Positions 911 to 15,739 of a stretch of 39,334 nucleotides of DNA are shown here, piece by piece. Source of the DNA: Desulfobacterales bacterium (GTDB lineage: Bacteria; Desulfobacterota; Desulfobacteria; Desulfobacterales; 4be13); the NCBI GenBank assembly GCA_029934695.1, contig JAOZLU010000003.1, positions 1 to 39,334 of the forward strand. The letters are read 5' to 3'. The position numbers and the translations under genes are program-made. The notes below the pieces were generated by a model. It was not told the DNA's origin. It did not search any database and saw only the letters and a program-made list of their open reading frames with translations. How positions within the stretch are numbered: the stretch's first letter is position 1; every line of letters begins with the position of its first letter.

Positions 911-1051
911 ACAATACTGTTTTTTTCGCTTTGATAAATTTTAAGAATACCCCCTGAAAATCAGAGGTATTCTTATTGTTGGATAACATTTGATTGTAGT
1001 TTATGATTTTCTGTCCGGCACCTACCGGAAAGAGTTGTCAAAAACAGATAA

Positions 1052-2539
1052 TCAACTGCTTTTTTTATTCATCTCTTCATTTTCTGCTGTAGCATCTTCA
1101 ACAATGCTTCTCATAGCAGATTTTGCTTCTTTGGACAATGGCATTGGTGTATGGTTTGCAAGAATATCAGCTGCTTTTTCAGCAGCACGTTCTGCCATAT
1201 TTTTACCACCCTTACCAAGCCAGCGGTCATAATTTGAACGTTCGATAATGTGGGGTGCAGAAGGCAGTGTTCGCATGTATTTCATGGTATGAGCCTGCAT
1301 TAGATGATCACCACCGGGTCCTACCGCTTTGATCGTATCTATTGCAAGATTCTCATCATTGACAACTATTCCCTGCATCACTTTTCTAACCATTTTAAAA
1401 ATATCATTATCAATTACCAACTGGGCATAACTGAAAATCAGTCCTGAATCCAACATTCCAGCACCGTAAATCAGATTTGAACCCGCACTTGCCGCACATA
1501 AGGCGGTCAGTGTTTTTTCATGACCAGCCTGTGCATCAGGCACTTTTGAATCAGCCTATCCACCGGCAGAAAAACTCGGCAGCATATATTTTTGAGCAAG
1601 TACCGGTGCTGCTGCATTCAACAGACCGCATTCAGGAGATCCCACAGGTGTTGTTGTGAGCTTCAAGTCAAAGCTCAGGGATGAACACCCATAAATTACC
1701 GGTGCACCTTTGCATGTCAGCTGATGCAATACAATGGCACCCAGAATCTCACAATTATGAGTTACCAGAGAGCCTGCAAGGGTTATTGGGCCGGATGCTC
1801 CTGCCATTACCATTGAGATCAGGTTACATGGAACTCCGGCTCTGGCACAGGTCATCACTCCGGTACAGCAGTTCACATCCAAGGTCAGAGGGCTTGTGGG
1901 AGAACAGTTGACAGTTAGAACAGGTCGTTCTCTTAACTCATCTTCTCCTCCAACAATAGCTTGGGCCATTTTGATAATCTTGTCAGCCCGCCATCCATTT
2001 CCCGGTCCATAAACAGTATGTTTTGATGTGTTGGCAAATACCACTTCAGCCTCATAAACAGGAGCAACATTATCTGGTGCATCTCCTGCAGTCAGAGAAC
2101 GTTCACACACATCAACCTCGTCCATAGCATCTGTTAAAAGGGCAGCCTTACCCACATCTTCATTTACTGATGGTCTGACTGTTCCATCAGTTTCCATAAT
2201 ATTGACACCCTGACCAAAAGTACAAAAATTAACCCGTTTGCCTTCCAGAAACACATCATGCTCAGAATCACGTCCGTATTGTACAATTTTCGGCGGTGCT
2301 GAACGGATGCACTCTTCCACAAGATAAGCAGGAAATTTTGCAATCTTTGTTTTACGGTCAATTATTGCACCTCCCCCTTCAAGAATATCTAAGGCTTCGT
2401 CACTTCCGACATAAAGCCCTGTTGTTCTCATAACTTCGAGGGTGGCAAGGTGAATTTTTTCAATCTCATCATCCGCAAAGACATTAAAACCGAAACCACC
2501 GGTTGCGATCATGTCTGAGGCGAGACTTCTTGTCACCAT
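1052..2539 (-). CDS. mttB: Trimethylamine:corrinoid methyltransferase MttB with an in-frame UAG (pyrrolysine) codon. One 495-codon gene, not two ORFs.
   Basis: ORFs 1556..2539 and 1052..1543 are in the same frame (2539 and 1543 are both 1 mod 3). They are separated only by TAG (plus strand 'cta' at 1556-1558) and 4 sense codons. The joined protein reads '...[31 protein letters not shown]...GAGMLDSG...QLVIDNDIF'. This matches the region around Pyl334 of Methanosarcina MttB as I recall it ('AGSOSDAKVPDDQAGHEKT'). There is an AAGGAG RBS before the ATG at 2539, and the true stop is TGA at 1052-1054. Confidence 0.9.
1556..1558 (-). other. UAG recoding site (predicted pyrrolysine, residue 328 of MttB)
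   Basis: The plus strand has 'cta' at 1556-1558, which is TAG on the coding strand. MttB-family sequence continues in frame on both sides. Confidence 0.85.
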
Positions 2540-2684
2540 ATCATTCTCCTTTTAATCATTGTTCATTTTTAATTTTTTTAACTCTTGTTTCATACTCTGT
2601 TTTAATTCCTGTTATGGTATTAAATTGCGGCGTTAGGCAGATGCCTTAAATTATGGGACTGTAACTTTCATTAATTTTAATCCT

Positions 2685-2925
2685 TCCTTCCGGAGCAACC
2701 GCTGGGGTTCTGAAGAATCTCTGGGATTCAAAAAATCCTTTCTATGCAGATGACGGGATTTGGCAATCCCTCTGGAGCAACCGCTGGGGATCTGAAGAAT
2801 CCCTGAGATTCAAAAAATTCTTTCTCACACATAATCCATGCAGATGACGGGATTTGGCAATCCCTCCAGAGCAACCCTTGGGGATTCAAAAAATCCTTTC
2901 TTACACATAATCCATGTAGATGAAC
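2685..2925. repeat. Tandem repeat with a ~94-bp unit in about 2.7 copies. The third copy carries an 18-bp deletion. It lies between the two mttB-family genes.
   Basis: The unit 'cagatgacgggatttggcaatccct..gagcaacc..tgggga(tctgaagaatccctgag)attcaaaaaat.ctttct.acacataatccatg' starts at 2747 and again at 2841 (period 94). A partial copy precedes it from about 2685. Each unit carries two small palindromes, 'gggatttggcaatccc' and 'ggattcaaaaaatcc'. Confidence 0.85.
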
Positions 2926-3156
2926 AAGCCGATCAGAATACCATCTGCCGTAAATGGTACCGTTCGGCACCATCCCCGCTCCTCTGTAAATCAAAATATA
3001 TTCGTTTATGACTTTCGGGGAGCAAAAATTCAGCTATAGTAATCATGTCCTTAGTAAATCCATTTTTGCACTCCATTCGACTCTCTGGGATGTCATCGGC
3101 GATGCCGATGTTATATGCCGCTCCTTTAGTTAAAATGTTTTAAATTGTAATTTAAT

Positions 3157-4605
3157 TTATTTTTGCAGTTTTTGCTTATTTATAAAATTCTCAAGCTCTG
3201 ATTCTATATCAGGATCAAGTATAGATTCAGGAGAGGCTGCAAGAATTTGTTCAACTTTTTGAGCTGCCACCTGTCCAACATCTTTTGATCCTGATTCTAT
3301 CCATTTATCATAATTATCCCATGAAGACACATTGGGTCTCCACGTATTTCGGCAGCCTGCCATGGTTGTCGGGTGGTATAAAAAACTTCCTTTTGGACCA
3401 ATATCTTTAATTACTTCCAATCCTAAATCTTCCCCCAATTTTTCAGTGGACTGGTTCATACCTTCCATAAATCTTAATACCCTTGAAATCATCTCCTCAT
3501 CCAGAATAAATTTTTCAAAAGAGTTGGTCATAATAGAATCCATAACTCCCAGGCACTCATTTATAATACTGACACCTCCTGCAATACATTCAAACAAATT
3601 CTGCATGGTCTCAAATCCTGCCTGGGCATCCAGAGTTTTTGCATCAGTAAGACCTGCCATTGTTCTTGTGGGAAGATGGTAGAGTTCCCTTGCAAGCTGA
3701 ATGTTTGCAACATTGATGATATTACTTTCTGGAGAACCGGTTACATATTGACCATTCTGCATATTAGGTACAGCAGATGCAGGACAATAGATAAATGATG
3801 CACCTGGTTGTACAAGCTGGCAAAGAACCAACCCTGCCAGAATCTCGGCATTTTGCAGGACACAGACACCCAAAGGGTTCATTGGAGCAGAAATACCAGC
3901 CAGGGCACAGGACAAAACTGCAGATGGCTGATTAAACCTTGCATAACTGATAATGGTTTCAATGGGAATCGAATCATACACCAGAGGACTTAATGGATTA
4001 ATGGAAGCATATATAGAAGGATGATCCATCAAAAAATCTTTTTTTCCTATTGTGATCTCAAACATATCAAATATGTTCGCTATCTCTCTATGGGTATTTA
4101 CATTTCGTTTTAAAGGTTTATCTGTATGTTTGAGCATTTGAAAGAAAATATCAAGGTATCCATTCTCAGGATCGATACCAGCGGGTTCCACAGGAAAGGC
4201 TCCGCCAATATCACACACTGAACTTGCCTGGGCCAGTTTGTAAAAAACTATCAGGTCCTGCATTGTAGCCGGTCTTCTGCCCTGTTTCAGATCCTGTGCA
4301 AAAACAGCACCATTGGAAGGTTCTACATGGGTATGCTTTTGACCTTCACCCACAAGAATTGATTTTTCTGAATCTATTGCCCATAATTTAAAAGAGGCAG
4401 GAGAAGATTCAATGGCATTTTCCACAAGTTTTCCAGGAATCATCACCCGGCTGCCATCAATTTTTGCTCCATGAGTTTTAAAAATATTCAAAGCCTCGTC
4501 ATGTAAAAACTCAACACCGACCTGCTCAAGAACTTCCAGGCTTGCTTTATGTATTTTGTTTAAATCCTGATTTGTCAGCATGCAGATGAAACTTTCCAGA
4601 GCCAT
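3157..4605 (-). CDS. Non-pyrrolysine MttB-superfamily methyltransferase. Likely a quaternary-amine/betaine:corrinoid methyltransferase of unknown substrate.
   Basis: The 482-aa protein is colinear with the neighbouring MttB ('LNKIHKASLEVLEQVGVEF', 'GSPESN', 'LDAQAGFETM'). Where the paralogue has '[18 protein letters not shown]', this protein has 'TMAG-L-TDAKTLDAQAGFE'. The Pyl position is therefore a Leu codon (ctt, plus strand 3649-3651). Confidence 0.8.
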   Translation of the reverse strand: MALESFICMLTNQDLNKIHKASLEVLEQVGVEFLHDEALNIFKTHGAKIDGSRVMIPGKLVENAIESSPASFKLWAIDSEKSILVGEGQKHTHVEPSNGAVFAQDLKQGRRPATMQDLIVFYKLAQASSVCDIGGAFPVEPAGIDPENGYLDIFFQMLKHTDKPLKRNVNTHREIANIFDMFEITIGKKDFLMDHPSIYASINPLSPLVYDSIPIETIISYARFNQPSAVLSCALAGISAPMNPLGVCVLQNAEILAGLVLCQLVQPGASFIYCPASAVPNMQNGQYVTGSPESNIINVANIQLARELYHLPTRTMAGLTDAKTLDAQAGFETMQNLFECIAGGVSIINECLGVMDSIMTNSFEKFILDEEMISRVLRFMEGMNQSTEKLGEDLGLEVIKDIGPKGSFLYHPTTMAGCRNTWRPNVSSWDNYDKWIESGSKDVGQVAAQKVEQILAASPESILDPDIESELENFINKQKLQK

Positions 4606-4624
4606 ATTTTAATTTCCTTTATAT

Positions 4625-6232
4625 TCAAGAAACTTTTTCCCGTTTTAATAAAAGATTATCCAACCAGTCAGGATCCATCTCTGGTACAGAGGAGAGCAGA
4701 AGTTCTGTATAATCGTGATCTGGTGAATCAAACATATCTTTTTTATTGCCCTGTTCAACAATATTGCCTTTATACATAACAATAACTTCATCAGCGATTG
4801 CCTTTACCGTGGCAAGATCGTGGGTGATAAAAAGATAAGACATGCCAAGCTCAGTCTGAAGCTTTTGCAGCAGTTTTAAAATTTCTTCTGCAACAAGCTG
4901 GTCAAGCGCACTGGTAATTTCATCACATATAATAAGATCAGGTTCTGCTGCCAGGGCTCTGGCAATACAGATCCTCTGTTTTTGACCTCCGGAGAGTTCT
5001 GAAGGATATCTGTCATAATAATGAGAAGGAAGCTCAATCATATCTAACAGTTTATGCACTTTTTTCTTTTTGGCTTTGCCACTGAGACCTGAATAAAATT
5101 CCAAAGGTCTCCCAATAATCCGCCTTATTTTCTGCCTTGGATTCAAGGCAACATCAGGCATCTGATAAATCATCTGTAATCGTCTTAAAGTGTTAAGGCT
5201 TCGCTGTCTGACATCAGGTGAAACTGACTTGCTGTCAAATAAAACCTTGCCTTTGTTTGGAGGTAAAAGACCTGTGATAACCCGGGCAAGGGTTGTTTTT
5301 CCAGAACCCGATTCCCCCACTACAGCCACATTCTGTCCACGGAAAATTTTAAAATCAATATCTTCCACAATATTCTGACCCGGATAATAGCCAGCATCAA
5401 CTCCTTGAATTTCTAATACAACTTCTTTATGAGATTTGGTGTTATCACATTTCTGCCGCCTTACATTTAAAAGATCCTTGGTGTACTGCTCTTTTGGATT
5501 TTCCAGCATCTCTCTTGTTTCCCCATCTTCCACAAGCCTGCCATGGCGCAAGACCATAACCCTGTCAGCCACCTGGGACACCACTGCCAGGTCATGAGTA
5601 ATATAGAGGGCAGCAGTGTTGTTTATTTTGATAGCATCCCGGATGGCGGCAAGCACTTCAATCTGGGTAGTCACATCAAGTGCTGTTGTTGGTTCATCAA
5701 AGACCACAATATCCGGGTCACACCCGAGTGCCATTGCAATCATTGCACGCTGGAGCTGTCCTCCTGACACCTGGTGTGGGTAGCGATAGCCAATTGAATC
5801 AGGAAATGGAAGATTCAGACGTTTGTATAATTTTTCTGCCTTCTGTTTTGCCTGTTTGAATGTCATGTGCCCATGGCGAACAGGTGTTTCAGCAAATTGC
5901 TGAACCAGACGGTGGGCAGGGTTGAAAGATGCAGCAGCACTCTGGGCAACATAAGCGATATTGGAACCTCTCAGCTGTGTCAGCTCCTTTTTTGTTGCAT
6001 CAACAAGCTCTTTGCCATCAAACATAACCGAACCTTCGGTAATATCACATCCATCACGGGTATATCCCATTGCTGCAAGACCAAGTGTACTTTTCCCTGC
6101 TCCAGACTCTCCAATAATGCCGAGCACTTCGCCCCTGTTTAACTGAAGATCTATATCCTCCAATAAAACAGTTGTGTTGCCATCCCAATATCCTTTAATT
6201 GTCAGGTTGTCTATCTTGAGTATATTGTCCAT
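4625..6232 (-). CDS. ABC transporter ATP-binding protein with two fused ATPase domains (DppD/DppF-like)
   Basis: There are two Walker A motifs ([18 protein letters not shown]), two ABC signatures ([16 protein letters not shown]) and two Walker B motifs (VVFDEPT, IICDEIT). Confidence 0.9.
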
Positions 6233-6250
6233 TCTCTTTTCCCTTTTTAA

Positions 6251-7078
6251 TTATTGAGCCCGAATCTGAGCACTGCGCTGAAGGAACCAGTCTACAACAA
6301 GGTTAATACCAATGGTCAGAAATGCTATGGCAGCAGCAGGATAAATTGGAATTGTAATTCCAAAGGCAATTGCTCCTGCATTCTCTCTGACCATACTGCC
6401 CCAGTCAGCCGTGGGTGGTTGAAGTCCAAGCCCCAAGAAGCTTAATGCACTGATAAAAAGAAAAACAAAGGAAAATCTCAAACCAAATTCAGCAATAAGC
6501 GCAGGGGCGGCATTGGGCAAAATTTCACGCCGAATTATCCATAAAAGCCCTTCACCTCGAAGCCTTGCAACTTCAACAAATTCCAGGGCACGGATATCCA
6601 TGGCAAGAGCACGGGCCAGCCTGTAAACCTTGGTAGAATCTATAAGGGCAATGACAAAAATAAGAATGGGAATGGAAGTCCCAAAAATTGAGAGAACCAT
6701 CAGTGCAAGGATTAAAGGAGGAAATGCCATAATAATATCCACAAGACGGCTGAGCATGGAATCCAGATATCCTTCTACTGTTGCAGCAAGAAGTCCTAAT
6801 CCGGAACCAATAGCAAAGGCAATACAGGTAATGATAAAAGCAATGGAAATTGTATTTCTTGCACCATACAGCATCCTGGTAAAGAGATCTCTGCCAACCT
6901 GATCAGTCCCCATAAGGTGATCCTGACCGGGAGTTAACCACACGCTGCCTACTTTCTGAGCTTCTTCATAGGGGGCAATTACTGGTGCAAGCAGAGCTGC
7001 TGCAACATTGATCAAAATAATGACCATACCAATTTTGGCGCTCAAAGGTGCCTGTTTTAACAGTTTTATGAAAGTCAT
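6251..7078 (-). CDS. ABC transporter permease (DppC/OppC-like)
   Basis: The 275-aa protein is polytopic. It has the BPD-transport EAA-loop region 'FVEVARLRGEGLLWIIRREILPNA'. Confidence 0.85.
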   Translation of the reverse strand: MTFIKLLKQAPLSAKIGMVIILINVAAALLAPVIAPYEEAQKVGSVWLTPGQDHLMGTDQVGRDLFTRMLYGARNTISIAFIITCIAFAIGSGLGLLAATVEGYLDSMLSRLVDIIMAFPPLILALMVLSIFGTSIPILIFVIALIDSTKVYRLARALAMDIRALEFVEVARLRGEGLLWIIRREILPNAAPALIAEFGLRFSFVFLFISALSFLGLGLQPPTADWGSMVRENAGAIAFGITIPIYPAAAIAFLTIGINLVVDWFLQRSAQIRAQ

Positions 7079-7094
7079 GATGTAATCACCTCAT

Positions 7095-8051
7095 CTATTC
7101 AGAAATGTGTCGTAATTTTGGGTTAGTAATAATTGCAAGGATATCTGCTGTTAAATTAAGCAGAATATATGTTGCAGCAAAGATAAGACCGCTTGCCTGA
7201 ACAACCGGCAGATCCCTTTTTGCAACAGAATCCACGAGAAGCTGTCCAAGTCCGGGATATACAAAGACAACTTCGACAACGACCACTCCGACAATGAGCC
7301 ATGCAAGATCCATAACTACAACATTAATAATGGGGGATAAAACATTGGGAATGGCATGCTTTATAATAATAGGCCATTCGCTTACCCCTTTAAGTTTTGC
7401 CATCTCAATATATGGACTGGTAAGCACCCCTATAATGGCTGCTCTTGTCATCCTCATCATGTGTGCCATTACTACGAGAAGGAGAGTAAAACAGGGCAGT
7501 ATAATGATATTGATTTTGGTCCAAAATGGCATGCTCGCCTGAATTGTTGCAACACTTGGCAAAAGACCAAGTTTGATTGAAAAAATATAGATAAGAATAT
7601 ACCCCACAAAGAATTCAGGAAACGAAATAGCTGCAAGACTTCCCATGGATAAAATTCTGTCCGGCCATCGTTCACGAAAAAGAGCTGCTATCATGCCGAA
7701 AATTATTGCCAGAGGTACTGCAACCAATGCAGCAGAAAAAGCAAGAAAAAGAGTATTGGAAAACCGCCATCCTATGACTTCATTGACAGGACGTTTATTG
7801 GATAGTGAAGTGCCAAGGTCTCCCTGGACAAAATTACCAAGCCATGACAGATATCGGGTATGCGGTGGAAGATCAAGTTTCAGCTCTTTTCTAAGTGCTG
7901 CCAGATTTTCCGGTGTAGCCTGCTGTCCGAGAATTGCTGTTGCAGGATCTCCCGGCAAAGCCTCGATGCTCAAAAAAATCAGGATGGATACCAGAAAAAC
8001 TGTGACTATTCCTGCTGCGAGTCGCTTTAAAACCATTCCTTTTATAGACAT
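7095..8051 (-). CDS. ABC transporter permease (DppB/OppB-like)
   Basis: The 318-aa protein is polytopic. It has 'YIEMAKLKGVSEWPIIIKHAIPNVLSPII', typical of DppB/OppB. The stop codon is TAG (plus strand 'cta' at 7095-7097). Confidence 0.85.
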   Translation of the reverse strand: MSIKGMVLKRLAAGIVTVFLVSILIFLSIEALPGDPATAILGQQATPENLAALRKELKLDLPPHTRYLSWLGNFVQGDLGTSLSNKRPVNEVIGWRFSNTLFLAFSAALVAVPLAIIFGMIAALFRERWPDRILSMGSLAAISFPEFFVGYILIYIFSIKLGLLPSVATIQASMPFWTKINIIILPCFTLLLVVMAHMMRMTRAAIIGVLTSPYIEMAKLKGVSEWPIIIKHAIPNVLSPIINVVVMDLAWLIVGVVVVEVVFVYPGLGQLLVDSVAKRDLPVVQASGLIFAATYILLNLTADILAIITNPKLRHISE

Positions 8052-8087
8052 AGTTTATTCTCCTCTGTAAATACAAATATGTTTAAT

Positions 8088-8174
8088 AGAGTTGTTCCTA
8101 AATAAGCTTTTTTGGGCTTTAAGACTTTTAACCATTTGTTTTTATTGAGTCAGTATTTATTTAGGAACAACTCT
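8088..8174. repeat. Perfect 18-bp inverted repeat (long hairpin) between the binding-protein and permease genes
   Basis: 'agagttgttcctaaataa' at 8088-8105 is the exact reverse complement of 'ttatttaggaacaactct' at 8157-8174. The spacer is 51 nt. Confidence 0.85.
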
Positions 8175-8280
8175 GATGATTTCGTTTATGTGTTTATCAA
8201 GGTGGGTTGCGGGTTTCGTTTTTTACTTCGTAAAAAATCGAAATCCTCCACCCACCCTGCAACCCGGGATTTTTATCTGT

Positions 8281-8323
8281 GGCGGAAGCCCTCGCAACGA
8301 GCGTGAGCATCCGTTATAATCAG
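8281..8323. mobile_element. Partial copy (right end) of the MITE-like 'ATCCGTTATAATCAG' element
   Basis: 'ggcggaagccctcgcaacgagcgtgagcatccgttataatcag' matches the right half of the element at 11751-11887. Confidence 0.6.
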
Positions 8324-8362
8324 AACAATTAATCAGAATAATTAATCGTTAATGAACTGCCT

Positions 8363-9946
8363 CTAAGAATCGAACCACCAGCGTTCACAGAACCTTAACC
8401 CGTCAAGTTCAAGGTTGCCGGACGGATTTTCAAACATCACTTTCTTTGTTGTGGCATCAACCATGTTGGCAATTGCCGGAATGACGACTCCACCTTCATC
8501 CCTGACAATTTTCTGCATTTCAAAATATAATTCACCGCGTTTTTTCTGATTTAATTCTGCACGGGCTTCCACAAGAAGCTTATTGAACCGTTCATGTTGC
8601 CAGTGCATATCATTGGAGGGAGTAGTTCCTGAATAGGTCTGGGTAAATATCCAGTCAGCTGTTGCCCTTGCAAACCAGTATGCCGCGCTGAATGGTTTTT
8701 TATTCCACACGTTGTCCCAATAGCCATCTTTTGGCTCTTTTACAACCTGCATTTTTAATCCGGCTTTTTTAGCATCTTCCTGCCATAGCTGAGCCGCATC
8801 GAGCGCACCTGAGAAAACAGCATCAGATGTGTGAAGCTTGAACTCGTAGCCTTCCATACCTGCTTTTTTCAAATAAAACTTTGCCTTATCCGGGTCATAC
8901 TGTCTCTGGGGAAGATCTGAGGCAGTATATTTTACTATTGGTGCAATGGGATGGTCATTACCCAGTGTGCCATATCTCTGGAGAATCGTATCAAGCATCT
9001 GTTGACGATCAACGGAATACTTCACTGCCATTCTGAGATTATTATCTGTATATGGTTTTGTGTCACAAAGCATTGGGAATGTATACAAAAGTCCGCCAGG
9101 CACATCAACCAGCTTTAGTTTAGGATTTCTTTTCAGCAGATGTGCTGTTTTTCGATCCGGTTTATTGATCACATCGACCTGTCCGGTCATTAATGCAGTT
9201 GTCCTTGCTGTGACATCTGACATAAAAGTAATATCAATTTCATTGAAATGGGCACGGTTTTCTTTCCAGTAATTTGGAAATCGTTTTGCAAGCACCCTTA
9301 CACCGGGTTCATATTCCACCAGCTGATACCCGCCTGTACCAAGGCCATCCTGAAAATTTGCTGTACCATTTGGAACAATGGGCATTCGCTGAGAAGCAAG
9401 AATATAGGGAAAATCTGCACTGGCACCCTTAAGTTCTATGATAATCTGGTTCGGACCATCTTTTTTGATGCTTTTTATCGTATCCACAAGAGTTTTTATC
9501 TGGGATGCCCTTGCAGGATCACGATGATAATTGATGGAATAAACTACATCATCAGCATCCATGGTTTTACCATTATGAAATTCAACGCCTTTCCGCAGAT
9601 TAATGATCCATCTTGATGCATTCGGAGTTGCCTCCCAGCTTTGTGCCAGCTCTGGTACTGCATTGCCCTTGTGATCAATTTCAACAAGCGGGTTTCTTAA
9701 AAAGCCAAGACTTGTCATCTGAACAAAAACATCATCAAATGTTGCCGGATCAAGGGATTCTGTGGTTGATCCGCCTGCCATACCAACTTTTAAAGTACCT
9801 CCTTGCATAGGAGTGGACGCAAAAACTGATTTTGTTAAAAAACTGCCGGGCAATGCTGCACTGGCACCAAGAGCTGCACCCATTGCCAAAAATTTACGGC
9901 GGGAAATACCATTGAGATCAGGATTAACACTTGTTTTCTGGGACAT
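8363..9946 (-). CDS. ABC transporter substrate-binding protein, family 5 (DppA/OppA-like), with a twin-arginine signal
   Basis: The Tat-like N-terminus is 'ISRRKFLAMGAALGASAA'. SBP_bac_5-type motifs include 'LAQSWEATPNASRWIINLRKGVEFHNGKTMDADDVVYS'. The stop codon is TAG. Confidence 0.85.
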   Translation of the reverse strand: MSQKTSVNPDLNGISRRKFLAMGAALGASAALPGSFLTKSVFASTPMQGGTLKVGMAGGSTTESLDPATFDDVFVQMTSLGFLRNPLVEIDHKGNAVPELAQSWEATPNASRWIINLRKGVEFHNGKTMDADDVVYSINYHRDPARASQIKTLVDTIKSIKKDGPNQIIIELKGASADFPYILASQRMPIVPNGTANFQDGLGTGGYQLVEYEPGVRVLAKRFPNYWKENRAHFNEIDITFMSDVTARTTALMTGQVDVINKPDRKTAHLLKRNPKLKLVDVPGGLLYTFPMLCDTKPYTDNNLRMAVKYSVDRQQMLDTILQRYGTLGNDHPIAPIVKYTASDLPQRQYDPDKAKFYLKKAGMEGYEFKLHTSDAVFSGALDAAQLWQEDAKKAGLKMQVVKEPKDGYWDNVWNKKPFSAAYWFARATADWIFTQTYSGTTPSNDMHWQHERFNKLLVEARAELNQKKRGELYFEMQKIVRDEGGVVIPAIANMVDATTKKVMFENPSGNLELDGLRFCERWWFDS

Positions 9947-10017
9947 GTTTTATCTCCTCTTTAAATGTCAGAAAAAATCAGCTTTACACTTTTTGGAAAA
10001 TTCTTCAAATCTTATCT

Positions 10018-10033
10018 TGCAAAACATATGCCA
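10018..10033 (-). promoter_or_regulatory. Sigma-54 (-24/-12) promoter driving the ABC-transporter/mttB operon
   Basis: The minus strand reads TGGCATatgttTTGCA, with GG and GC spaced exactly as in the consensus TGGCAC-N5-TTGCA. It lies about 70 nt upstream of the ATG at 9946. An NtrC-type activator is encoded immediately upstream. Confidence 0.7.
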
Positions 10034-10145
10034 TTTCAATCTGTTGTATGTAAAAAAGAAGATGAAGAATGATAGACAAAGGTTATGAAAAAAAATACTG
10101 AAAAAGAAATTGTGCAAAATAGCAGTGTTTTTTTTGTAAAAATTC

Positions 10146-10182
10146 TGAGAATTTTACAAAAAAATAATAATTCTTCAATTTT
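10146..10182. promoter_or_regulatory. Candidate enhancer (UAS) motif shared with 14641-14677
   Basis: 'tgagaattttacaaaaaaataataattcttcaattt' aligns without gaps to 14641-14677 with 29/37 identities. The conserved half-sites are GAGAATTTTnCAA and AATAATTnTTCAAnTTT. It overlaps the imperfect palindrome ttgtaaaaattc/gaattttacaa (10134-10159). It lies 110-165 bp upstream of the sigma-54 promoter. Confidence 0.45.
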
Positions 10183-10229
10183 TTCAAGATAATGCCAAAT
10201 TCTGAAAAACATCTTATGTTTTCCTGGCA

Positions 10230-10279
10230 GGCGGAAGCCCTGCGACTGTGCGGAGCCTCACAACGAGTGGGAGCATTCA
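10230..10279. mobile_element. Degenerate internal fragment of the MITE-like element
   Basis: 'ggcggaagccctgcgactgtgcggagcctcacaacgagtgggagcattca' shares 'ggcggaagccct', 'gcgactgtgcg' and 'caacgagtgg' with 11751-11887. Confidence 0.5.
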
Positions 10280-10336
10280 TTTTTGCAGTTGCTGTCCAAG
10301 AGCTTTCATTCAGACTAAAAACAATTGCCACTCCAA

Positions 10337-11719
10337 TTATCCGCACTCCATCATTTTTTTGAACTGATATCGAAATGTGTGATGTTTAAGATTCAACAGT
10401 TTTGCAGCCCGGGTTTCATTTCCTTTTGCAAGTTTCATTGCCTGGGAAAAATAAAATTTATCCATGTAATTTCTAACCTGGTTAAGATCTATTCCAGTGG
10501 GAGGCAGTGGTGTAAATGTAGTTGAATCTTCCATGATCTTTCCATGTTGAATTTTATTAAGTCCCAAATCATCAGGCGTTAATAATTCACCTGAGGCTAT
10601 CAGCACAGCTCTCTCCATCATGTTTTTCAACTCTCTGACATTTCCACTCCAAGTGTACAGTTTTAGCAGGTTCAATGCTTCATCACTGATACCTGTTAAA
10701 GATCTGCCAAATTTTTCATTAAACGTATGCAAAAAATATTTTGCAAGAAGTATGGTGTCCTCATGTCTGTCATTTAAAGATGGAACATTTATTTTAATGA
10801 CACTCAGGCGATAAAAAAGATCTTTTCTGAATGATCCTTTAAAAATCATTTTCTCAAGTTCCTTGTTTGTTGCTGATACTATTCGGGTTTTTATTTTATG
10901 TCGTATCGTACTGCCAACTTTATAAAATTCTCCCTCCTCAATGAACCTGAGAAGCTTTGCCTGAGCATCCAGATTCAGGTCTCCAACTTCATCTAAGAAA
11001 AGCGTACCTTTGTCAGCCATTTCAATGAGTCCTTTTTTTCCGGATTGACTTGCCCCGCTGAAAGCCCCTTTTTCATATCCGAAAAGCTCACTTTCAAGCA
11101 GTTCTGTTGGAATGGCAGCACAGTTTATAGTGACAAAGGGCCCTGCAAAATTTGGACTCCTATGATGAATTGTGCTTGCAATCAACTCTTTTCCCGTTCC
11201 TGTATCACCAAGGATAAGTATAGGTGTATCAGGGCTTTTAGCTACCATTTCCAAGTATTCCATAATATCGTGGATTGCCTTGCTTTCACCGATAAAACAC
11301 GGCAGATTTTCCCTGATCTGCTTTTCCTGAAGTTTTTTTATCTCTTTTCTAAGCCGTATGGTCTCAAGTGCATTGGCAATGGTTACCTCCAGTCCTTCCA
11401 TGTGAATGGGCTTGATGATATAATCAAAAGCACCATTTTTCATACACTCAATGACAGAGCCTATATCTTCATATGCTGTAATCATGATGACAAGAAGATT
11501 ATCACTGATTTGTTTAAACTTTTTCAATGCCTCAATTCCATTCATACCCGGCAGTCCTATATCCAGGAGAACAAGATCCGGCTGCTGAACCTTTATCTTT
11601 TCAAGTGCCTTTTCTGCTGATTCAAATGTATATAGAGAGTAATCATCTTCAAGGTCAGAAGAGATACCTTCCCGGATGGTTTTTTCATCATCTACTATAA
11701 AAAGGGTGTATTCCACCAT
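10337..11719 (-). CDS. Sigma-54-dependent response regulator (NtrC family: REC + AAA+ + Fis-type HTH)
   Basis: The REC domain has 'FIVDDEKT...DLVLLDIGLPGMNG'. The AAA+ domain has Walker A 'GDTGTGKE', the GAFTGA-type loop 'EKGAFSGA' and 'ESELFGYEKGAF'. A C-terminal HTH is present. I place the start at the ATG at 11717-11719 (MVEYTLFIV), preceded by GAGGAG. The longer ORF reaching 11872 reads through the MITE. Confidence 0.85.
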   Translation of the reverse strand: MVEYTLFIVDDEKTIREGISSDLEDDYSLYTFESAEKALEKIKVQQPDLVLLDIGLPGMNGIEALKKFKQISDNLLVIMITAYEDIGSVIECMKNGAFDYIIKPIHMEGLEVTIANALETIRLRKEIKKLQEKQIRENLPCFIGESKAIHDIMEYLEMVAKSPDTPILILGDTGTGKELIASTIHHRSPNFAGPFVTINCAAIPTELLESELFGYEKGAFSGASQSGKKGLIEMADKGTLFLDEVGDLNLDAQAKLLRFIEEGEFYKVGSTIRHKIKTRIVSATNKELEKMIFKGSFRKDLFYRLSVIKINVPSLNDRHEDTILLAKYFLHTFNEKFGRSLTGISDEALNLLKLYTWSGNVRELKNMMERAVLIASGELLTPDDLGLNKIQHGKIMEDSTTFTPLPPTGIDLNQVRNYMDKFYFSQAMKLAKGNETRAAKLLNLKHHTFRYQFKKMMECG

Positions 11720-11750
11720 TATCTTACTCCTCTCTTTGCATCTGTATTTT

Positions 11751-11887
11751 CTGATTATAACGAATGCGGGAGCATGATTCGGGACATTCCCGCTCGTTGC
11801 GGGGCGGGATCCCTGCGACTGTGCGTTGCGAGGCGGAAGCCCTCGCAACGAGTGGACTTGAAGGCTCCCCACATCCGTTATAATCAG
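11751..11887. mobile_element. Complete MITE-like element (~137 bp) with terminal inverted repeats, between the kinase and regulator genes
   Basis: The left end 'ctgattataacgaatgc' (11751-11767) and the right end 'acatccgttataatcag' (11870-11887) are inverted repeats. The interior carries 'ccctgcgactgtgcg' and 'ggcggaagccctcgcaacgagtgg'. Confidence 0.7.
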
Positions 11888-11898
11888 TATATTTAATT

Positions 11899-14433
11899 CT
11901 AAGATTGTATAAAAACAGGCATCTCAATTATAAATTTTGTACCGCCAAGTTCTGATGAAACTACTTTAAGTGTTCCTTTATGATCAGTAATAATTCTATG
12001 GCAAAGGCTCAACCCTATACCTGTACTGTTTTCTTTGGTTGTAAAAAAAGGTTCAAAAATTTTCTGCCTTAAATCTCTTGGAATACCTGGTCCATTATCA
12101 TCAATACTAAGAACAAGTTTATCATGCATGGCATTTGACGAAACCTCAATAACTCTGTTTCCTTTTTTGACCAAAAGAGCATCTGCTGCATTATTAATAA
12201 GATTTAAGATAACCTCCTCAATAAGATTTGGTTCTGCATGACAGTGAGGCAGATTTTTATCCAGTTTCTGCCTGATGGAAATCTTCTTTTTGTGAAGGGT
12301 GGTATTTGACAGATCAACTGCTTCGAGTATTGGAACATTTATATCAATTAAATCAAATTTTGGTTCTGCCGGTTTCGCAAAATTCATCACTCTTTTAATG
12401 ACAGATTCCATTTTTTGTGAAGCAGATCGTATGGCATCAATAGATGGTTTGATTTTATGAATTTTTTCCGGGTTTTCAAAACTTTTTTCTATTGTTCTGA
12501 TATAAATATTAATGCCAGACAGAGGATTTCTGATTTCATGGGCTATCCCGGCTGATACATGCCCTAAAGATGCCATTTTATCCTGAACTGCCAGCAGACG
12601 TTCCAACTCTTTTGCCCTTGTCATATCTATGGTAATCAGCAAAAGAGCTTTTTTATCCTGATGGTCAATGGGTCTGGTAATACAGTTTACCCATTTCATA
12701 GTTACCGGCTCATTTTGATCAGATGATTTAAAAAACCTGAAATCCATTTCCGACTGCACCAAAGCTCCTTTTACAATCTGCTCATACAGTTGTTTTGCCT
12801 TTTTCAAATCATCCTGATGGATATGTTTATAGGCTGGAGAGTCAAACAACCCCAAATTCCCCATGAGTTCAGACTGTCGTGAATTTTTATAGACAACCGT
12901 ACCATCCTGGATAATCGCAATACCGTTGGGGGAATTTTCCACAAGGTCCCTGAATCTTTTTTCACTTTTTTGTATGGCACGCTCATTTTTTTTTCTTTGA
13001 ATCAATCTCCACATGCCCTGAGTCAGCAGACTCAGCTGTCTTAAATCTGAAGAGTCATAATCGCTTTTTTTATTCCCCATGCCTGCAACAGCCACAATTT
13101 TATCTCCACTGAAAACAGGAACACTTATGTATCTAAAATTTTTTTTATGTTCTGTTGGAGCACCCTTTTTATATAAATTCAAGTATTCATACTTGTTTGA
13201 AATTGAGGGTTTACCTTTACGGATAGCATCTCCCCAAAATCCTTCGGTATCAGCGCCGAATCCAGTAGCAAGATTATGTTCAATCTTTTTCTTTATCGAA
13301 AAAGTGCTGCCTGGATTAACCTCATACATGATTCCTTTTTGATCTTCAAAAGCCAGATATCCAAAGTTGCTTTTTGTCAGACGAATCATCTGCTGAAAGG
13401 CAAAATCAATGGTTTCCCGGATAGAGGCATGGGTACGTTCGTTCAATTCCAGTAATGCCTCAAGGCGTATCTCATTAAATCTGAGTTCCTCGGTTCTCTG
13501 CATCACCTGATTTTTCAACATTCTGTTCCAGATCAGAATTGAACTGGTGATAAAAAGAACAGTCAGGGCAATTGCTGAAACAATATACCAGAATATTTGG
13601 GTTTGGTAGAATCTTATGGTTTCAAGCCGAATCCATTTGGCATGTATCTCTTTGTGCTCTTTTTCACTGATATTTGCCAGGGCTTTTTCAATAATTTCAG
13701 CCAAAACAGGCCAGTCTTTTCTTATCCCCAAACCAAGATTGAGTTCAAAACCAGTATCACCAGCCAGTCGAAGATTTGTAATTTTTTCAGTTTCAATGAC
13801 ATACAGGGCATTGGGCACTTCAATGATCATGGCATCAAGTTCACCAAAAGAGACTTTATGCATACCCTCATTGCCGTTTAACACATCTGTGAGGGTAAGT
13901 TCAGGATAATTATCTCTTATAAATTTACCCACTGCATACTCCTTTGGCACACCTATTTTCATCCCCTGCATCTGATCGAGGGTAAAGGTTTTTGTTCTGG
14001 ATTTTTCTACAATTATTGTTGTTTTAATATCCAGATAAGGGGTTGACCAGTTCATAAACAGTTTTCTTGCAGGGGTAGCCTGAGCTGCGCTAATGATGTC
14101 AATTTTCCTCTCTTTAGCAAGAGAAAGTATTTTTTCCCAGCTTTTAATCCTGACAATTTTAAATTTAAACTCAAATTTTTTTTCTATCAAACGAATATAA
14201 TCAGCAACCATACCCTGATACACTCCGTTTTTATCAAAAAACTCCATGGGTTCCCAGTCAGGAGCAGGTGCCAACCTGATTTTTCCGTCATGAACATTCA
14301 ACCATTTCCGTTCATCCCTGGTTAAGATATCGTTTCCGGCAAAACCAGTAGTTGAATAAAAAAGAATAGCTAACCAAAAAAGAACATCATGAATAACAGC
14401 TCGTAAAATTAAATTTATCCTTTGGTTGTCCAT
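11899..14433 (-). CDS. Sensor histidine kinase: periplasmic family-3 solute-binding domain, TM, GAF-like, PAS, HisKA, HATPase
   Basis: An N-terminal TM helix precedes an SBP_bac_3-like region ('IRLAPAPDWEPMEFFDKNGVYQGMVADY'). A second TM helix is 'IFWYIVSAIALTVLFITSSILIW'. Kinase motifs are the H-box 'GIAHEIRNPL', N-box 'LINNAADAL', G1 'DDNGPGIP' and G2 'GIGLSLC'. The stop codon is TAG. Confidence 0.85.
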   Translation of the reverse strand: MDNQRINLILRAVIHDVLFWLAILFYSTTGFAGNDILTRDERKWLNVHDGKIRLAPAPDWEPMEFFDKNGVYQGMVADYIRLIEKKFEFKFKIVRIKSWEKILSLAKERKIDIISAAQATPARKLFMNWSTPYLDIKTTIIVEKSRTKTFTLDQMQGMKIGVPKEYAVGKFIRDNYPELTLTDVLNGNEGMHKVSFGELDAMIIEVPNALYVIETEKITNLRLAGDTGFELNLGLGIRKDWPVLAEIIEKALANISEKEHKEIHAKWIRLETIRFYQTQIFWYIVSAIALTVLFITSSILIWNRMLKNQVMQRTEELRFNEIRLEALLELNERTHASIRETIDFAFQQMIRLTKSNFGYLAFEDQKGIMYEVNPGSTFSIKKKIEHNLATGFGADTEGFWGDAIRKGKPSISNKYEYLNLYKKGAPTEHKKNFRYISVPVFSGDKIVAVAGMGNKKSDYDSSDLRQLSLLTQGMWRLIQRKKNERAIQKSEKRFRDLVENSPNGIAIIQDGTVVYKNSRQSELMGNLGLFDSPAYKHIHQDDLKKAKQLYEQIVKGALVQSEMDFRFFKSSDQNEPVTMKWVNCITRPIDHQDKKALLLITIDMTRAKELERLLAVQDKMASLGHVSAGIAHEIRNPLSGINIYIRTIEKSFENPEKIHKIKPSIDAIRSASQKMESVIKRVMNFAKPAEPKFDLIDINVPILEAVDLSNTTLHKKKISIRQKLDKNLPHCHAEPNLIEEVILNLINNAADALLVKKGNRVIEVSSNAMHDKLVLSIDDNGPGIPRDLRQKIFEPFFTTKENSTGIGLSLCHRIITDHKGTLKVVSSELGGTKFIIEMPVFIQS

Positions 14434-14640
14434 ATCTGCTATTTTAACCTATTAAAATTGTTTTGTACCACTTTATTTATGATTTACTGATTGTAACACA
14501 TATTAAAATCAGTATTCAAGATATATACCATAACCACTCTTTCATACGGTCACCGGACCTAATGCCTTATAGTTGCAGTTTAAATCCGGTTTACAGTTTT
14601 TAATAAAATTCTGATTTATATTCTTATCTGAAAAATAATA

Positions 14641-14677
14641 TGAGAATTTTTCAACTTTTTAATAATTTTTCAACTTT
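14641..14677. promoter_or_regulatory. Candidate enhancer (UAS) motif, the second copy of the one at 10146-10182
   Basis: 'tgagaatttttcaactttttaataatttttcaacttt' contains the direct repeat 'aatttttcaacttt' at 14645-14658 and 14664-14677. It lies about 175-210 bp upstream of the sigma-54 promoter at 14851. Confidence 0.45.
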
Positions 14678-14850
14678 ATTTTTATCTGCAACCAGAGTTG
14701 ATAAAAATTGTATTCTTTTAGAAATTTGCAATTTTGAATACTTTAAAAAAGATAACATTGAAAAATTTCATTTAAAATAAATTCATTTTTATATAATAAA
14801 AACAATAAGATATTTTAATTTCAAAAAGATATTTATTTATAATTAAGTTG

Positions 14851-14866
14851 TGGCATACATCATGCA
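14851..14866 (+). promoter_or_regulatory. Sigma-54 (-24/-12) promoter driving the corrinoid-protein operon
   Basis: TGGCATacatcATGCA has GG at 14852-14853 and GC at 14864-14865, which is consensus spacing. It lies 86 nt upstream of the ATG at 14952. Confidence 0.65.
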
Positions 14867-14951
14867 AAGTTTCTAAATTTGTTGTTAAGTGAGATTTAGA
14901 ATAAAAAATAAGTTGCAATTTTTAACATAAAAATAAAAAGGGAGATAACAA

Positions 14952-15584
14952 ATGGCGGATTTTAATGCAATGCAGGAGTCTTTAGTTAGCTGTGACAAGG
15001 ATAAACTTGTGGGTCTGGTAAATGCAGCATTGGCAGAAGACATAAGTGCATCAGATATTTTAAACCAGGGATTGATCGCTGGTATGGATATTGTTGGTGA
15101 AAAAATGGAAAACGGTGACATGTTTATTCCCGAAGTACTTATGGCAGCCAAAGCAATGGGTGAATGTGTGATTATTTTAAAGCCACTGCTCGGTGAGGAT
15201 GAGTCTTCAAAAGGTGGTAATGTAGTTATTGGAACTGTCAAAGGTGATCTTCATGACATAGGTAAAAACCTTGTTGCAATGATGATGGAGAGTGCCGGTA
15301 TGACAGTTCATAATGTGGGAGTTGATATTGCACCTGAAGATTTTGTTACTCAGATAAAAGAAAAAAATGCCCGGATTGTCTGCCTGTCAGCTCTTTTGAC
15401 CACTACAATGCCCATGATGAAACAGACTGTTGATGCCATAGTTGAAGCAGGTTTGAGAGATCAGGTTAAAGTTATGGTGGGTGGTGCGCCTGTAACCCAG
15501 GCATTTGCCGATGAGATCGGAGCTGACGGCTTTGCAGCGGATGCAGGTTCTGCTGCCAGATTTGCTAAAACTCTTTTAGCATAA
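14952..15584 (+). CDS. Methyltransferase cognate corrinoid (cobalamin-binding) protein, MttC/MtbC-like
   Basis: The 210-aa protein has an N-terminal helical cap (B12-binding_2) and a B12-binding domain. The latter has the DxHxxG motif 'GDLHDIGKNLV' and the 'SALLTTTM' and 'VMVGGAP' motifs. A GGGAG RBS is present. Confidence 0.85.
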   Translation: MADFNAMQESLVSCDKDKLVGLVNAALAEDISASDILNQGLIAGMDIVGEKMENGDMFIPEVLMAAKAMGECVIILKPLLGEDESSKGGNVVIGTVKGDLHDIGKNLVAMMMESAGMTVHNVGVDIAPEDFVTQIKEKNARIVCLSALLTTTMPMMKQTVDAIVEAGLRDQVKVMVGGAPVTQAFADEIGADGFAADAGSAARFAKTLLA

Positions 15585-15739
15585 CATTGTAAGACCGAAA
15601 ATCAGCCAAGTTGCCGGTTTTCCAAACAAATTCAGCTAATTTTCCTGAAAAATCCCATTGAACGGAACCAGTGCCAAAAATTGAGCGAAGCGGCTTTTTG
15701 CACCACACACCTCCGAGATGACAAAGATTTTATTTAAAG

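Follow-up and report, generated by a model that had tools for sequence, protein, structure and literature searches.

A family-5 ABC importer linked to MttB-type methyltransferases in a pyrrolysine-decoding Desulfobacterales bacterium

Methyltransferases for trimethylamine (TMA) of the MttB family that carry pyrrolysine (Pyl) at a UAG codon are known from Methanosarcina barkeri, together with the corrinoid protein MttC, and from bacterial mttB-mttC-pyl gene clusters in Desulfitobacterium, Bilophila, and "Deltaproteobacteria-bbl" (PMC8318568). The transporter partner of the published deltaproteobacterial Pyl locus is an Ehu-type ATP-binding cassette (ABC) system (PMC8318568). In the methanogen systems, the transporter partner is an MttP-type permease. 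Here, we describe a 39,334-nucleotide (nt) stretch of DNA from a Desulfobacterales bacterium (GenBank assembly GCA_029934695.1, contig JAOZLU010000003.1, positions 1 to 39,334), referred to below as the window, in which a Pyl-MttB, a second MttB-family protein lacking Pyl (non-Pyl MttB), and a corrinoid protein are instead accompanied by an ABC importer with a family-5 binding protein. The host is a marine sulfate reducer of the Desulfobacteraceae. The region from 838 to 20552 is likely a catabolic island for methylated ammonium compounds in this pyrrolysine-decoding host.

Two further described systems resemble parts of the island. MtgB of Desulfitobacterium hafniense (Protein Data Bank [PDB] 2QNE and 9YCE) shares with the non-Pyl MttB its fold family, a Leu at the Pyl position, a conserved acid-binding Arg, and a small corrinoid partner. 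In sulfite- and sulfate-reducing bacteria, D-cysteinolate is broken down to pyruvate, ammonia, and sulfite by the products of hpsN-cuyC-cuyA-cuyB (Liu et al. 2025, PMC12814064), and the same four enzyme families are encoded in one array in Bilophila sp. 4_1_30, in Desulfovibrio litoralis (PMC12814064), and in the island. The components of the island are all of known kinds, namely, Pyl-MttB with pyl genes, non-Pyl MttB, a corrinoid protein, a sigma-54 two-component system, a family-5 ABC importer, and the cuy pathway.

Conserved linkage and shared promoters

An earlier note on this DNA, prepared from its letters, proposed that both MttB proteins and the corrinoid protein are wired to a peptide-type (Dpp/Opp) importer. 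All of the genes that it placed were recovered at the same positions from open reading frames (ORFs) and Pfam matches, and the proposed wiring is borne out by conserved linkage and by matching sigma-54 promoters. The features of the importer, methyltransferase, and regulatory genes are as follows:

1052 to 2539, minus strand: Pyl-MttB, trimethylamine-type methyltransferase (495-codon frame; PF06253)
2685 to 2925, no strand assigned: imperfect direct repeats, about three copies of 76 to 94 nt (repeat search families D1 to D3; 85 to 93% identity)
3157 to 4605, minus strand: non-Pyl MttB of a distinct subfamily (PF06253, E = 3e-111)
4625 to 6232, minus strand: fused double ABC ATPase, DppD/DppF type (two ABC_tran domains and oligo_HPY)
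6251 to 7078, minus strand: ABC permease, DppC/OppC type (BPD_transp_1 and OppC_N)
7095 to 8051, minus strand: ABC permease, DppB/OppB type (BPD_transp_1_N and BPD_transp_1)
8363 to 9946, minus strand: family-5 binding protein with a twin-arginine signal (SBP_bac_5, E = 6e-70)
10018 to 10033, minus strand: sigma-54 promoter (-24/-12), TGGCATATGTTTTGCA, whose 3′ end lies 72 nt before the binding-protein ATG
10337 to 11719, minus strand: NtrC-type sigma-54-dependent response regulator, 460 amino acids (aa) from the ATG of the public gene call (Response_reg, Sigma54_activat, and AAA_lid_14)
11899 to 14433, minus strand: sensor histidine kinase (periplasmic SBP_bac_3, GAF, HisKA, and HATPase; Pfam)
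14851 to 14866, plus strand: sigma-54-type promoter, TGGCATACATCATGCA, whose 3′ end lies 86 nt before the corrinoid ATG
14952 to 15584, plus strand: corrinoid protein, MttC/MtgC type (B12-binding_2 and B12-binding)

The genes for the binding protein, the two permeases, the ATPase, and the non-Pyl MttB follow one another with gaps of 311, 16, 18, and 19 nt, the last separating the ATPase stop from the mttB start codon, and Pyl-mttB follows after a further 617 nt. The two mttB genes had been described as the distal members of an operon led by the binding-protein gene. The genes, their order, and the gaps of 16 to 19 nt agree with that description; Pyl-mttB, beyond the 617-nt gap, is a putative member of the operon. 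The imperfect repeats occupy much of this gap; they came from a separate repeat search, and Tandem Repeats Finder reported none there. No sigma-54 motif or terminator-like site was found within the gap 5′ of Pyl-mttB, and an ORF that overlaps the repeats (2728 to 2994) matches no Pfam family and is unlikely to be a gene. The corrinoid gene lies in a divergent unit on the plus strand, as previously proposed.

The window proteins were mapped onto 79 genome loci and 80 metagenome loci encoding relatives of the binding protein (designated below by L and a number). Linkage to MttB was counted in 74 genome relatives, comprising 16 that belong to the window's clade in a neighbor-joining tree (clade A) and 58 others. 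An MttB-family gene was present within the retrieved stretch in 13/16 clade loci versus 9/58 of the other relatives (Fisher p = 1.7e-6); in a fourteenth clade locus the MttB gene is 17 kb away, and the last two lie on contigs that end early. The 58 other relatives are mostly modules of a MarR gene, a binding-protein gene, and ABC genes with unrelated neighbors. Among the closest metagenome loci, 12 of the 14 encode an orthologue of the Pyl-MttB or a non-Pyl MttB beside the binding protein. The count is not the product of pseudoreplication, since clustering at 95% identity sorts the clade A and neighboring loci (approximately 36) into 30 binding-protein groups, and the linkage is conserved in approximately 20 lineages of Desulfobacterota.

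The arrangement seen in the window recurs on contigs of several metagenomes, and some relatives encode complete systems. In one of them, the genes for the binding protein, two permeases, the ATPase, Pyl-MttB, a corrinoid protein, and a Pterin_bind-type MT2 (the methyltransferase that acts on the methylated corrinoid protein) follow one another; in L030, the order is binding protein, ABC genes, non-Pyl MttB, corrinoid protein, MT2, and pylB. Other relatives carry an MT2 of the URO-D type. No report of coupling between family-5 transporters and MttB was found in the literature searched, and the distinct family-5 clade coupled to MttB systems in Desulfobacterota is new.

The genes for the kinase and the regulator lie between the transporter operon and the corrinoid gene, and both of these units are preceded by a sigma-54 motif, which reads TGGCAT-N5-TTGCA for the binding-protein gene and TGGCAT-N5-ATGCA for the corrinoid gene. 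The former is one of only two single-mismatch matches in 39 kb. Matches with two mismatches are not above chance across the window, such that position is what counts and a motif taken alone says little. Motifs of the same type are found 5′ of the binding-protein gene in four relatives (L089, L019, L015, and L085), 5′ of the corrinoid gene in two of these (L019 and L085), and 5′ of non-Pyl mttB genes in three loci, including that of Desulforapulum autotrophicum HRM2. At six other loci, kinases encoded beside operons of the family-5 importer/Pyl-MttB type or the non-Pyl MttB/BCCT type are 50 to 62% identical to the window kinase in the sensor domain, and the same type of kinase and regulator accompanies operons that encode a non-Pyl MttB, a BCCT carrier, a corrinoid protein, and MT2. 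Given that matching promoters recur in relatives and that the kinases are related, the transporter operon and the corrinoid gene very probably form one regulon. Together, the conserved linkage and the matching sigma-54 promoters support the view that the importer, the mttB genes, and the corrinoid gene constitute one functional unit.

Active sites of the methyltransferases and their corrinoid partner

The identification of the Pyl-MttB draws on the following additional features:

838 to 910, minus strand: pylT, tRNA-Pyl with anticodon CUA (ARAGORN)
1459 to 1558, minus strand: PYLIS-type element beginning at the TAG codon (Rfam RF02510, PYLIS_3)

The Pyl-mttB frame contains a single in-frame TAG at 1556 to 1558 (residue 328), and PF06253 spans residues 18 to 484 (E = 4.4e-93; Pfam). 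The PYLIS_3 match scores 82.4 bits against a gathering score of 38 (E = 1.6e-15; Rfam). Compared with the M. barkeri MttB structure (7XCM), the protein scores 390 bits at 44% identity, and its TAG aligns with Pyl334. The catalytic residues Gly110 and Tyr364 and the mobile Met249 of MttB (PMC9842639) are kept, together with Pyl334, as G109, Y358, M243, and O328 in the window protein, whereas Thr111 is replaced by Gln. The TAG is present at the same motif in 23/23 of the linked Pyl-MttB orthologues. Judged from its sequence, the Pyl-MttB passes every test of a TMA methyltransferase.

The gene for pylT lies directly 3′ of Pyl-mttB, and pylS, pylB, pylC, and pylD are on the same public contig, just past the start of the window. 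The likeness to described Pyl TMA systems thus extends from the UAG at the Pyl334 position, the PYLIS-type element, and the conserved Gly110/Met249/Tyr364 residues to a cognate corrinoid protein and adjacent pylT and pylSBCD; the differences, apart from the transporter, are that no MT2 or RamA gene accompanies the window genes and that the Pyl-MttB is only 44% identical to the archaeal enzyme. The window Pyl-MttB belongs to an orthologue group of its own, in which the copies linked to the binding protein are 83 to 90% identical; other Pyl-MttB paralogues of Desulfobacterales are only 43 to 48% identical to it.

Two observations concern the surroundings of these genes and the wider family. Pieces of an ilvD (dihydroxy-acid dehydratase) pseudogene are wedged between pylT and pylS-pylB-pylC-pylD (window positions 4 to 746; L001, 14864 to 20272), with a G+C content of approximately 49%, versus 35 to 42% in the island. 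Desulfobacterales have several deep lineages of Pyl-MttB paralogues (L022, 473 to 3799; L030, 5934 to 7412) that are about as distant from the window enzyme as the archaeal MttB, which poses the question of whether every one of them uses TMA.

The non-Pyl mttB frame has no internal stop codon, and the codon at 3649 to 3651 specifies Leu319 at the Pyl position. Among solved structures, the encoded protein is closest to that of D. hafniense MtgB (9YCE, 274 bits). Mutagenesis and a ligand-bound structure established that MtgB holds glycine betaine with four residues: Y97 and F356 form an aromatic cation-pi pair that binds the trimethylammonium group, and H348 and R312 bind the carboxylate (PMC13080624). 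Three of the four are replaced in the window protein (Y97N, H348E, and F356I), and only the Arg is kept (R312 as R314). The aromatic pair is therefore represented by Asn98 and Ile358 and the carboxylate pair by R314 and Glu350, yielding the signature N98-R314-L319-E350-I358, the equivalent in MtgB being Y-R-L-H-F. The H348E substitution abolishes the activity of MtgB (PMC13080624). An MtgB-type function in glycine betaine demethylation was ruled out by these three replacements. The Leu that the earlier note had likened to betaine-type members of the family is indeed present, whereas the likeness does not extend to the ligand site.

The exact N-R-L-E-I signature occurs in 74/119 of the closest full-length homologues, most of the others differing solely at the first position, and it is also found in a second group of non-Pyl MttBs that are 37 to 43% identical and belong to related loci. 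Of the non-Pyl members of the family, which also include MtcB, MtpB, MtyB, and MthB, MtgB was the one used for the comparison. Orthologues of the window protein at 60 to 66% identity (in HRM2, Desulfoluna butyratoxydans, and two metagenomic loci) adjoin BCCT carriers, in keeping with the earlier statement that BCCT transporters are a usual partner of such enzymes. Because the N-R-L-E-I signature takes the place of the MtgB site, the substrate is expected to differ from glycine betaine, and the BCCT-linked orthologues together with the conserved Arg point to a quaternary amine that bears an acid group. The non-Pyl MttB is thus not an MtgB and probably acts as a methyltransferase on an acidic quaternary amine, and the large subfamily to which it belongs, with its non-MtgB active site, is new.

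The corrinoid protein has a DLHDIG motif, an instance of DxHxxG, and its best NCBIfam models are MtbC (215/350), MtgC (203/370), and pyl_corrinoid (194/215), each scoring below its cutoff. Its gene is divergent from the transporter operon, and the protein is presumably shared by both MttB enzymes. The earlier note had found neither MT2 nor RamA in the window, and the window ORFs that were scanned or read, including two (1856 aa and 743 aa) inspected solely by eye, likewise yielded no gene of the Pterin_bind, URO-D, or RamA type. A perfect palindrome of 14 + 14 nt, TAAACTTGGACTTGG TCC AAGTCCAAGTTTA, separates the corrinoid gene from hpsN at 15777 to 15807, with AAACTT repeats on its 5′ side and no run of T on its 3′ side on the plus strand; its appearance suggests an operator or an RNA hairpin rather than a terminator.

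The importer and its predicted cargo

The importer has the Pfam architecture of the Dpp/Opp family, with a family-5 binding protein, OppB/OppC-type permeases, and an oligo_HPY ATPase, and the ATPase (4625 to 6232) matches NCBIfam models for dipeptide and nickel ATPases. The binding protein carries an N-terminal twin-arginine motif, SRRKFL, in which R16 and R17 are invariant in the family; the Pfam TAT_signal model scores 19.4 bits against a cutoff of 22.7. No equivalog-level match of the binding protein to DppA, OppA, NikA, or GsiB was obtained with NCBIfam, and the scores for the peptide/nickel equivalogs all fell far below their cutoffs (156 versus 600 for Opp5A_nikA and 97 versus 1005 for DppA). 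Its AlphaFold2 model (mean pLDDT of 82) gave GsiB, DppA, and AgaA as the best Foldseek matches, with TM-scores of 0.7 to 0.8 to GsiB and DppA. Searches with the sequence, profiles, and the model found only distant relatives among the solved structures, namely, GsiB, DppA, AgaA, and NikZ, at 20 to 23% identity.

In DppA, we take Arg355 to bind the peptide carboxylate and Asp408 to bind the peptide amino group (mature numbering). In a profile alignment to 1DPP at approximately 22% identity, Arg355 is replaced by Ala376, with Asp375 adjacent, and Asp408 is replaced by an Arg427 that is invariant in the family. The cryo-electron microscopy entry 8Z1Z is a DppA mutant (R383D+D436R) altered at the same two positions. 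In the neighbor-joining tree, the binding protein belongs to an MttB-linked clade within a subfamily associated with quaternary amines, and residues specific to the clade include R187, W388, and V338.

The family assignment to Dpp/Opp/Nik by Pfam and NCBIfam, and the peptidase-like genes next to some distant relatives, would be expected of an ordinary di- or oligopeptide transporter that lies beside methylamine genes by chance or for nitrogen supply. This explanation was rejected, and we regard it as very improbable, on account of the linkage kept across approximately 20 lineages, the sigma-54 control common to the transporter operon and the corrinoid gene, the missing DppA peptide anchors, and equivalog scores far below their cutoffs. 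The label "peptide-type" given by the earlier note appears to fit the family of the importer and not its function.

The genomic context of more distant relatives bears on the cargo. Binding proteins 43 to 49% identical to that of the window are common on alphaproteobacterial plasmids, and several are coupled to the catabolism of quaternary amines. The relative in Paracoccus denitrificans PD1222 belongs to an operon that also encodes carnitine 3-dehydrogenase and a cleavage enzyme of the BKACE family. The gene for that in Leisingera thetidis is flanked by a LysR gene and betC, and its operon, for choline-sulfate, ends with betB. These two are 46 to 49% identical over 92 to 98% of the window binding protein. 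A relative on a Ruegeria plasmid lies near a non-Pyl MttB, and the remaining alphaproteobacterial contexts are uninformative or involve hydrolases.

Prb of Sinorhizobium meliloti is reportedly an Opp-like transporter for proline betaine (title of Alloing et al. 2006, J Bacteriol 188:6308). It is likened here by description only, and the features that it would share with the Paracoccus and Leisingera importers and with that of the window are a family-5 binding protein, two Dpp-type permeases, Dpp-type ATPases, and quaternary amine uptake. The alphaproteobacterial operons differ in that they encode oxidative pathways and LysR or GlxA regulators, whereas the window encodes corrinoid methyltransferases and a sigma-54 two-component system in an anaerobe. 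Because the peptide anchors are lost, related importers lie in carnitine and choline-sulfate operons, and Prb offers a precedent, the most likely cargo is a zwitterionic quaternary amine, taken up in a Prb-like manner, rather than peptides.

Several points weigh against this interpretation and against the proposal as a whole. The comparison of the DppA anchors uses alignments at approximately 22% identity together with the roles taken here for R355 and D408, and the ligand class of the clade is predicted from such comparisons and from context. Many relatives at approximately 50% identity are linked to MarR without methylamine genes, and some adjoin peptidase-like or hydrolase genes; their neighborhoods are heterogeneous, with no common metabolic partner, and a tie to quaternary amines thus does not hold for all of the subfamily. 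Cotranscription of Pyl-mttB with the transporter operon is made less certain by the repeat-bearing gap of 617 nt. With neither MT2 nor RamA in the window, the downstream half of the pathway is assumed. Finally, in the two closest transporter operons (binding proteins 78 to 80% identical), the importer genes are followed by Pyl-mttB alone, and these operons fit bare TMA as the cargo equally well.

The last point belongs to an alternative in which the importer carries free TMA (trimethylammonium) with high affinity for the Pyl-MttB, the non-Pyl MttB being a later insertion served by another carrier or by leaky specificity. The Pyl-MttB is the most constant neighbor of the clade, often directly adjacent to the binding protein (Pyl-mttB first, in L007 to L009, L012, L013, and L093 to L101); non-Pyl mttB is missing from the closest operons; and the orthologues of the non-Pyl MttB normally have a BCCT carrier of their own, with one locus (L018) having both carriers. 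Set against this are the invariant Arg427 in the predicted ligand site, the zwitterionic quaternary amines in the contexts of relatives, and the genes for non-Pyl MttBs of several types that come immediately after the ATPase gene (window, L013, L056, L030, and L103). Moreover, we know of no precedent for a large cluster-C binding protein that recognizes a four-atom cation. Taken together, import of free TMA is unlikely.

The earlier note had likewise argued that the imported substrate is probably not free TMA and could be a larger N-methylated compound, with TMA as a breakdown product. A larger cargo is favored by the carnitine and choline-sulfate contexts and by Arg427, whereas the closest operons, with Pyl-MttB alone, would suit bare TMA just as well. 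The breakdown of the cargo to TMA found no support, as no TMA-releasing enzyme was present in any of the compared loci.

Cysteinolate genes beside the corrinoid gene

The genes 3′ of the corrinoid gene constitute what is, by sequence comparison, the canonical D-cysteinolate pathway, which changes the range of plausible substrates:

15858 to 17168, plus strand: HpsN-type L-cysteinolate dehydrogenase, histidinol dehydrogenase family (PF00815)
17292 to 18512, plus strand: CuyC-type cysteinolate racemase, DegT family (DegT-family models)
18708 to 19724, plus strand: CuyA, D-cysteate sulfo-lyase (NCBIfam NF052482, 525.6 bits versus a cutoff of 450)
19845 to 20552, plus strand: CuyB, cysteate racemase (NCBIfam NF052483, 255.5 bits versus a cutoff of 190)

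A role for hpsN and the DegT-like gene in histidine or sugar metabolism was ruled out by the CuyA and CuyB equivalog matches and by the match to known clusters. Compared with stand-alone cuy clusters of Desulfobacterales, the window proteins are 76 to 87% identical (HpsN, 79 to 84%; CuyC, 76 to 78%), except for CuyB at 60 to 65%. None of these stand-alone clusters is accompanied by mttB genes, and one is approximately 430 kb from the MttB island of a complete metagenome-assembled genome. RidA and GntR genes are present in all three stand-alone clusters compared, and one has a TRAP transporter; the window array lacks these and, unlike the stand-alone clusters, lies directly behind the gene for a methyltransferase corrinoid protein. 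Transporters, corrinoid proteins, and N-demethylases are not mentioned in the published description (PMC12814064).

In nine lineages defined by the binding protein (the window, L085, L009, L093/L094, L097, L099, L101, L103, and L106), hpsN and cuyC are interleaved with genes for Pyl-MttB, the family-5 importer, non-Pyl MttB, the corrinoid protein, and MT2, and they come with cuyA/cuyB or with a gene for a threonine-synthase-like (ThrC-like) lyase. This enzyme, a pyridoxal phosphate (PLP) protein with NF006050 scores of 630 to 650 bits and a weaker match to cysteate synthase, replaces CuyA/CuyB beside hpsN-cuyC and may be a racemase-independent L-cysteate sulfo-lyase. It was located as follows:

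L009, 2932 to 4134: ThrC-like lyase (NF006050)
L076, 11869 to 13095: ThrC-like lyase (NF006050)
L103, 7199 to 8467: ThrC-like lyase (NF006050)

L103 (504 to 19819) has all of its genes on one strand in the order Pyl-mttB, corrinoid protein, pylB, hpsN, cuyC, ThrC-like lyase, MT2, family-5 binding protein, two permeases, ATPase, non-Pyl mttB, pylS, pylC, and pylD, the pyl genes being split around the array.

Aerobic bacteria offer a parallel. Four of their cuy clusters have no demethylase and use TauABC, and in another four the cuy genes are linked to genes for N-demethylases and betaine-type transporters. In L076 (9010 to 18201), a DAO+GCV_T protein resembling dimethylglycine dehydrogenase (DMGDH) is encoded directly 5′ of hpsN, followed by cuyC and the ThrC-like gene, with IclR and a family-5 binding protein alongside. 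A plasmid of Pseudomonas sp. MPC6 (L179) combines a DMGDH-like enzyme, a glycine-betaine-type binding protein, ETF, and purU with cuy genes. On a plasmid of Leisingera methylohalidivorans (L180), a ProU-type ABC system, a non-Pyl MttB, and a DMGDH-like enzyme lie by cuyACB-hpsN. A plasmid of Paracoccus seriniphilus (L182) encodes a DMGDH-like enzyme, ETF, folD, purU, and a Rieske/2Fe-2S pair by the cuy genes. This recurrent fusion of cysteinolate catabolism to N-demethylation is new.

The parallel between anaerobes and aerobes suggests N-methylated cysteinolate as a natural substrate. In this special case of the explanation preferred below, the importer would bring in a single betaine-like compound, such as N,N,N-trimethylcysteinolate, whose methyls would be moved to the corrinoid protein first by the non-Pyl MttB and then by the Pyl-MttB; CuyC, HpsN, CuyB, and CuyA would turn the cysteinolate that is left into pyruvate, ammonia, and sulfite. 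Consistent with this are the interleaving in nine lineages; the one-strand array of L103, in which hpsN-cuyC lies between pylB and the MT2 gene; and the makeup of the window array, which lacks RidA, GntR, and TRAP genes and lies behind a corrinoid gene driven by a sigma-54 promoter. The aerobic clusters are fused to N-demethylases of other kinds and to betaine-type transporters, whereas those without a demethylase use TauABC or TRAP transporters, and an N-R-x-E-I signature is common to the non-Pyl MttBs linked to cuy genes.

Other observations do not fit. About half of the clade A loci with enough flanking sequence lack cuy genes (L087, L019, L018, L015, L105, and L107), as do the neighborhoods of the non-Pyl MttB orthologues in HRM2, L091, and L092, and in the complete metagenome-assembled genome the cuy cluster and the MttB island are separate. 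Three methyls would have to be removed by two MttB-type enzymes, since PLP enzymes need a primary amine, and the Pyl-MttB retains all catalytic residues of the TMA enzyme. No report of N-methylated cysteinolate compounds was found in the literature searched. We therefore hold a common substrate of this kind to be possible but doubtful, and the wider proposal, that the island, its approximately nine relatives in sulfate reducers, and the four aerobic clusters all degrade an N-methylated cysteinolate ("cysteinolate betaine") osmolyte, is offered as a tentative one. If it were true, one osmolyte would supply both the electron donor, as methyl groups, and the electron acceptor, as sulfite; the Pyl enzyme would act on a tertiary amine other than TMA, a possible new substrate class; and the recurrent fusion of cuy and N-demethylase genes would predict a new natural compound.

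The cuy genes could also have no substrate in common with the methyltransferases. A methylamine would then be the electron donor beside cysteinolate as the acceptor (through sulfite), with the importer carrying D-cysteinolate. No transporter gene belongs to the cuy module of the window, whereas a TRAP transporter accompanies one of the stand-alone clusters; in L076 a relative of the binding protein lies by cuy-like genes without MttB; and the six electrons released per methyl would equal the six needed per sulfite reduced. Yet the binding-protein clade tracks MttB, which is present at most loci, far better than cuy, which is present at about half; the demethylase-free cuy clusters that were examined use TauABC or TRAP and never a family-5 importer; and the cuy-like operon of L076 begins with an N-demethylase. 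Import of D-cysteinolate is, accordingly, improbable.

The explanation that we prefer, in which the importer takes up a zwitterionic quaternary amine for the methyltransferases, is one that we consider probable as a whole. The sensor kinase, through its periplasmic binding-protein domain, would detect the substrate and activate the NtrC-type regulator, which would fire the sigma-54 promoters 5′ of the transporter operon and the corrinoid gene. The ABC importer, of a branch that appears to lack the DppA peptide anchors, would bring in a zwitterionic quaternary ammonium osmolyte and not peptides. The non-Pyl MttB would take a methyl from the imported quaternary amine, and the Pyl-MttB, with pyrrolysine supplied by the adjoining pylT and pylSBCD, would take methyls from TMA or another tertiary amine; both would methylate the single corrinoid protein. 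From there, the methyl would pass to tetrahydrofolate by way of an MT2 encoded outside the window, represented in relatives by the adjoining Pterin_bind or URO-D protein. HpsN, CuyC, CuyA, and CuyB would turn cysteinolate into pyruvate, ammonia, and sulfite, the last serving as electron acceptor.

Beyond the island, the window encodes further binding-protein-like sequences. A 960-aa protein at 36209 to 39091 is a fusion of a Peripla_BP_6 (Leu/Ile/Val-type) domain to an SBP_bac_5 domain, and it adjoins two paralogous proteins of approximately 740 aa (31655 to 33856 and 33948 to 36179). The one paralogue that was scanned has Peripla_BP_6 followed by a C-terminal stretch without a Pfam match that looks hydrophobic by eye. 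A TonB-dependent receptor gene (23380 to 25329) adjoins the 1856-aa ORF (25978 to 31548), whose product by eye resembles bacterial alpha-2-macroglobulin-like proteins; the G+C content of this stretch is approximately 53%.

Methylated amines and sulfonates are major osmolytes of algae and animals, and competition for them between the sulfate reducers and the methanogens of marine sediments affects methane release. The "peptide/nickel" ABC family is widespread and routinely misannotated, and in Desulfobacterota it is probably the high-affinity entry route for methylated ammonium compounds. The non-Pyl MttB subfamily is a clear target in the search for a new quaternary amine substrate, and the kinase/sigma-54 pair is a candidate sensor for methylated ammonium compounds. 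If the importer has the role proposed here, metabolic predictions that are drawn from transporters in metagenomes would need correction.

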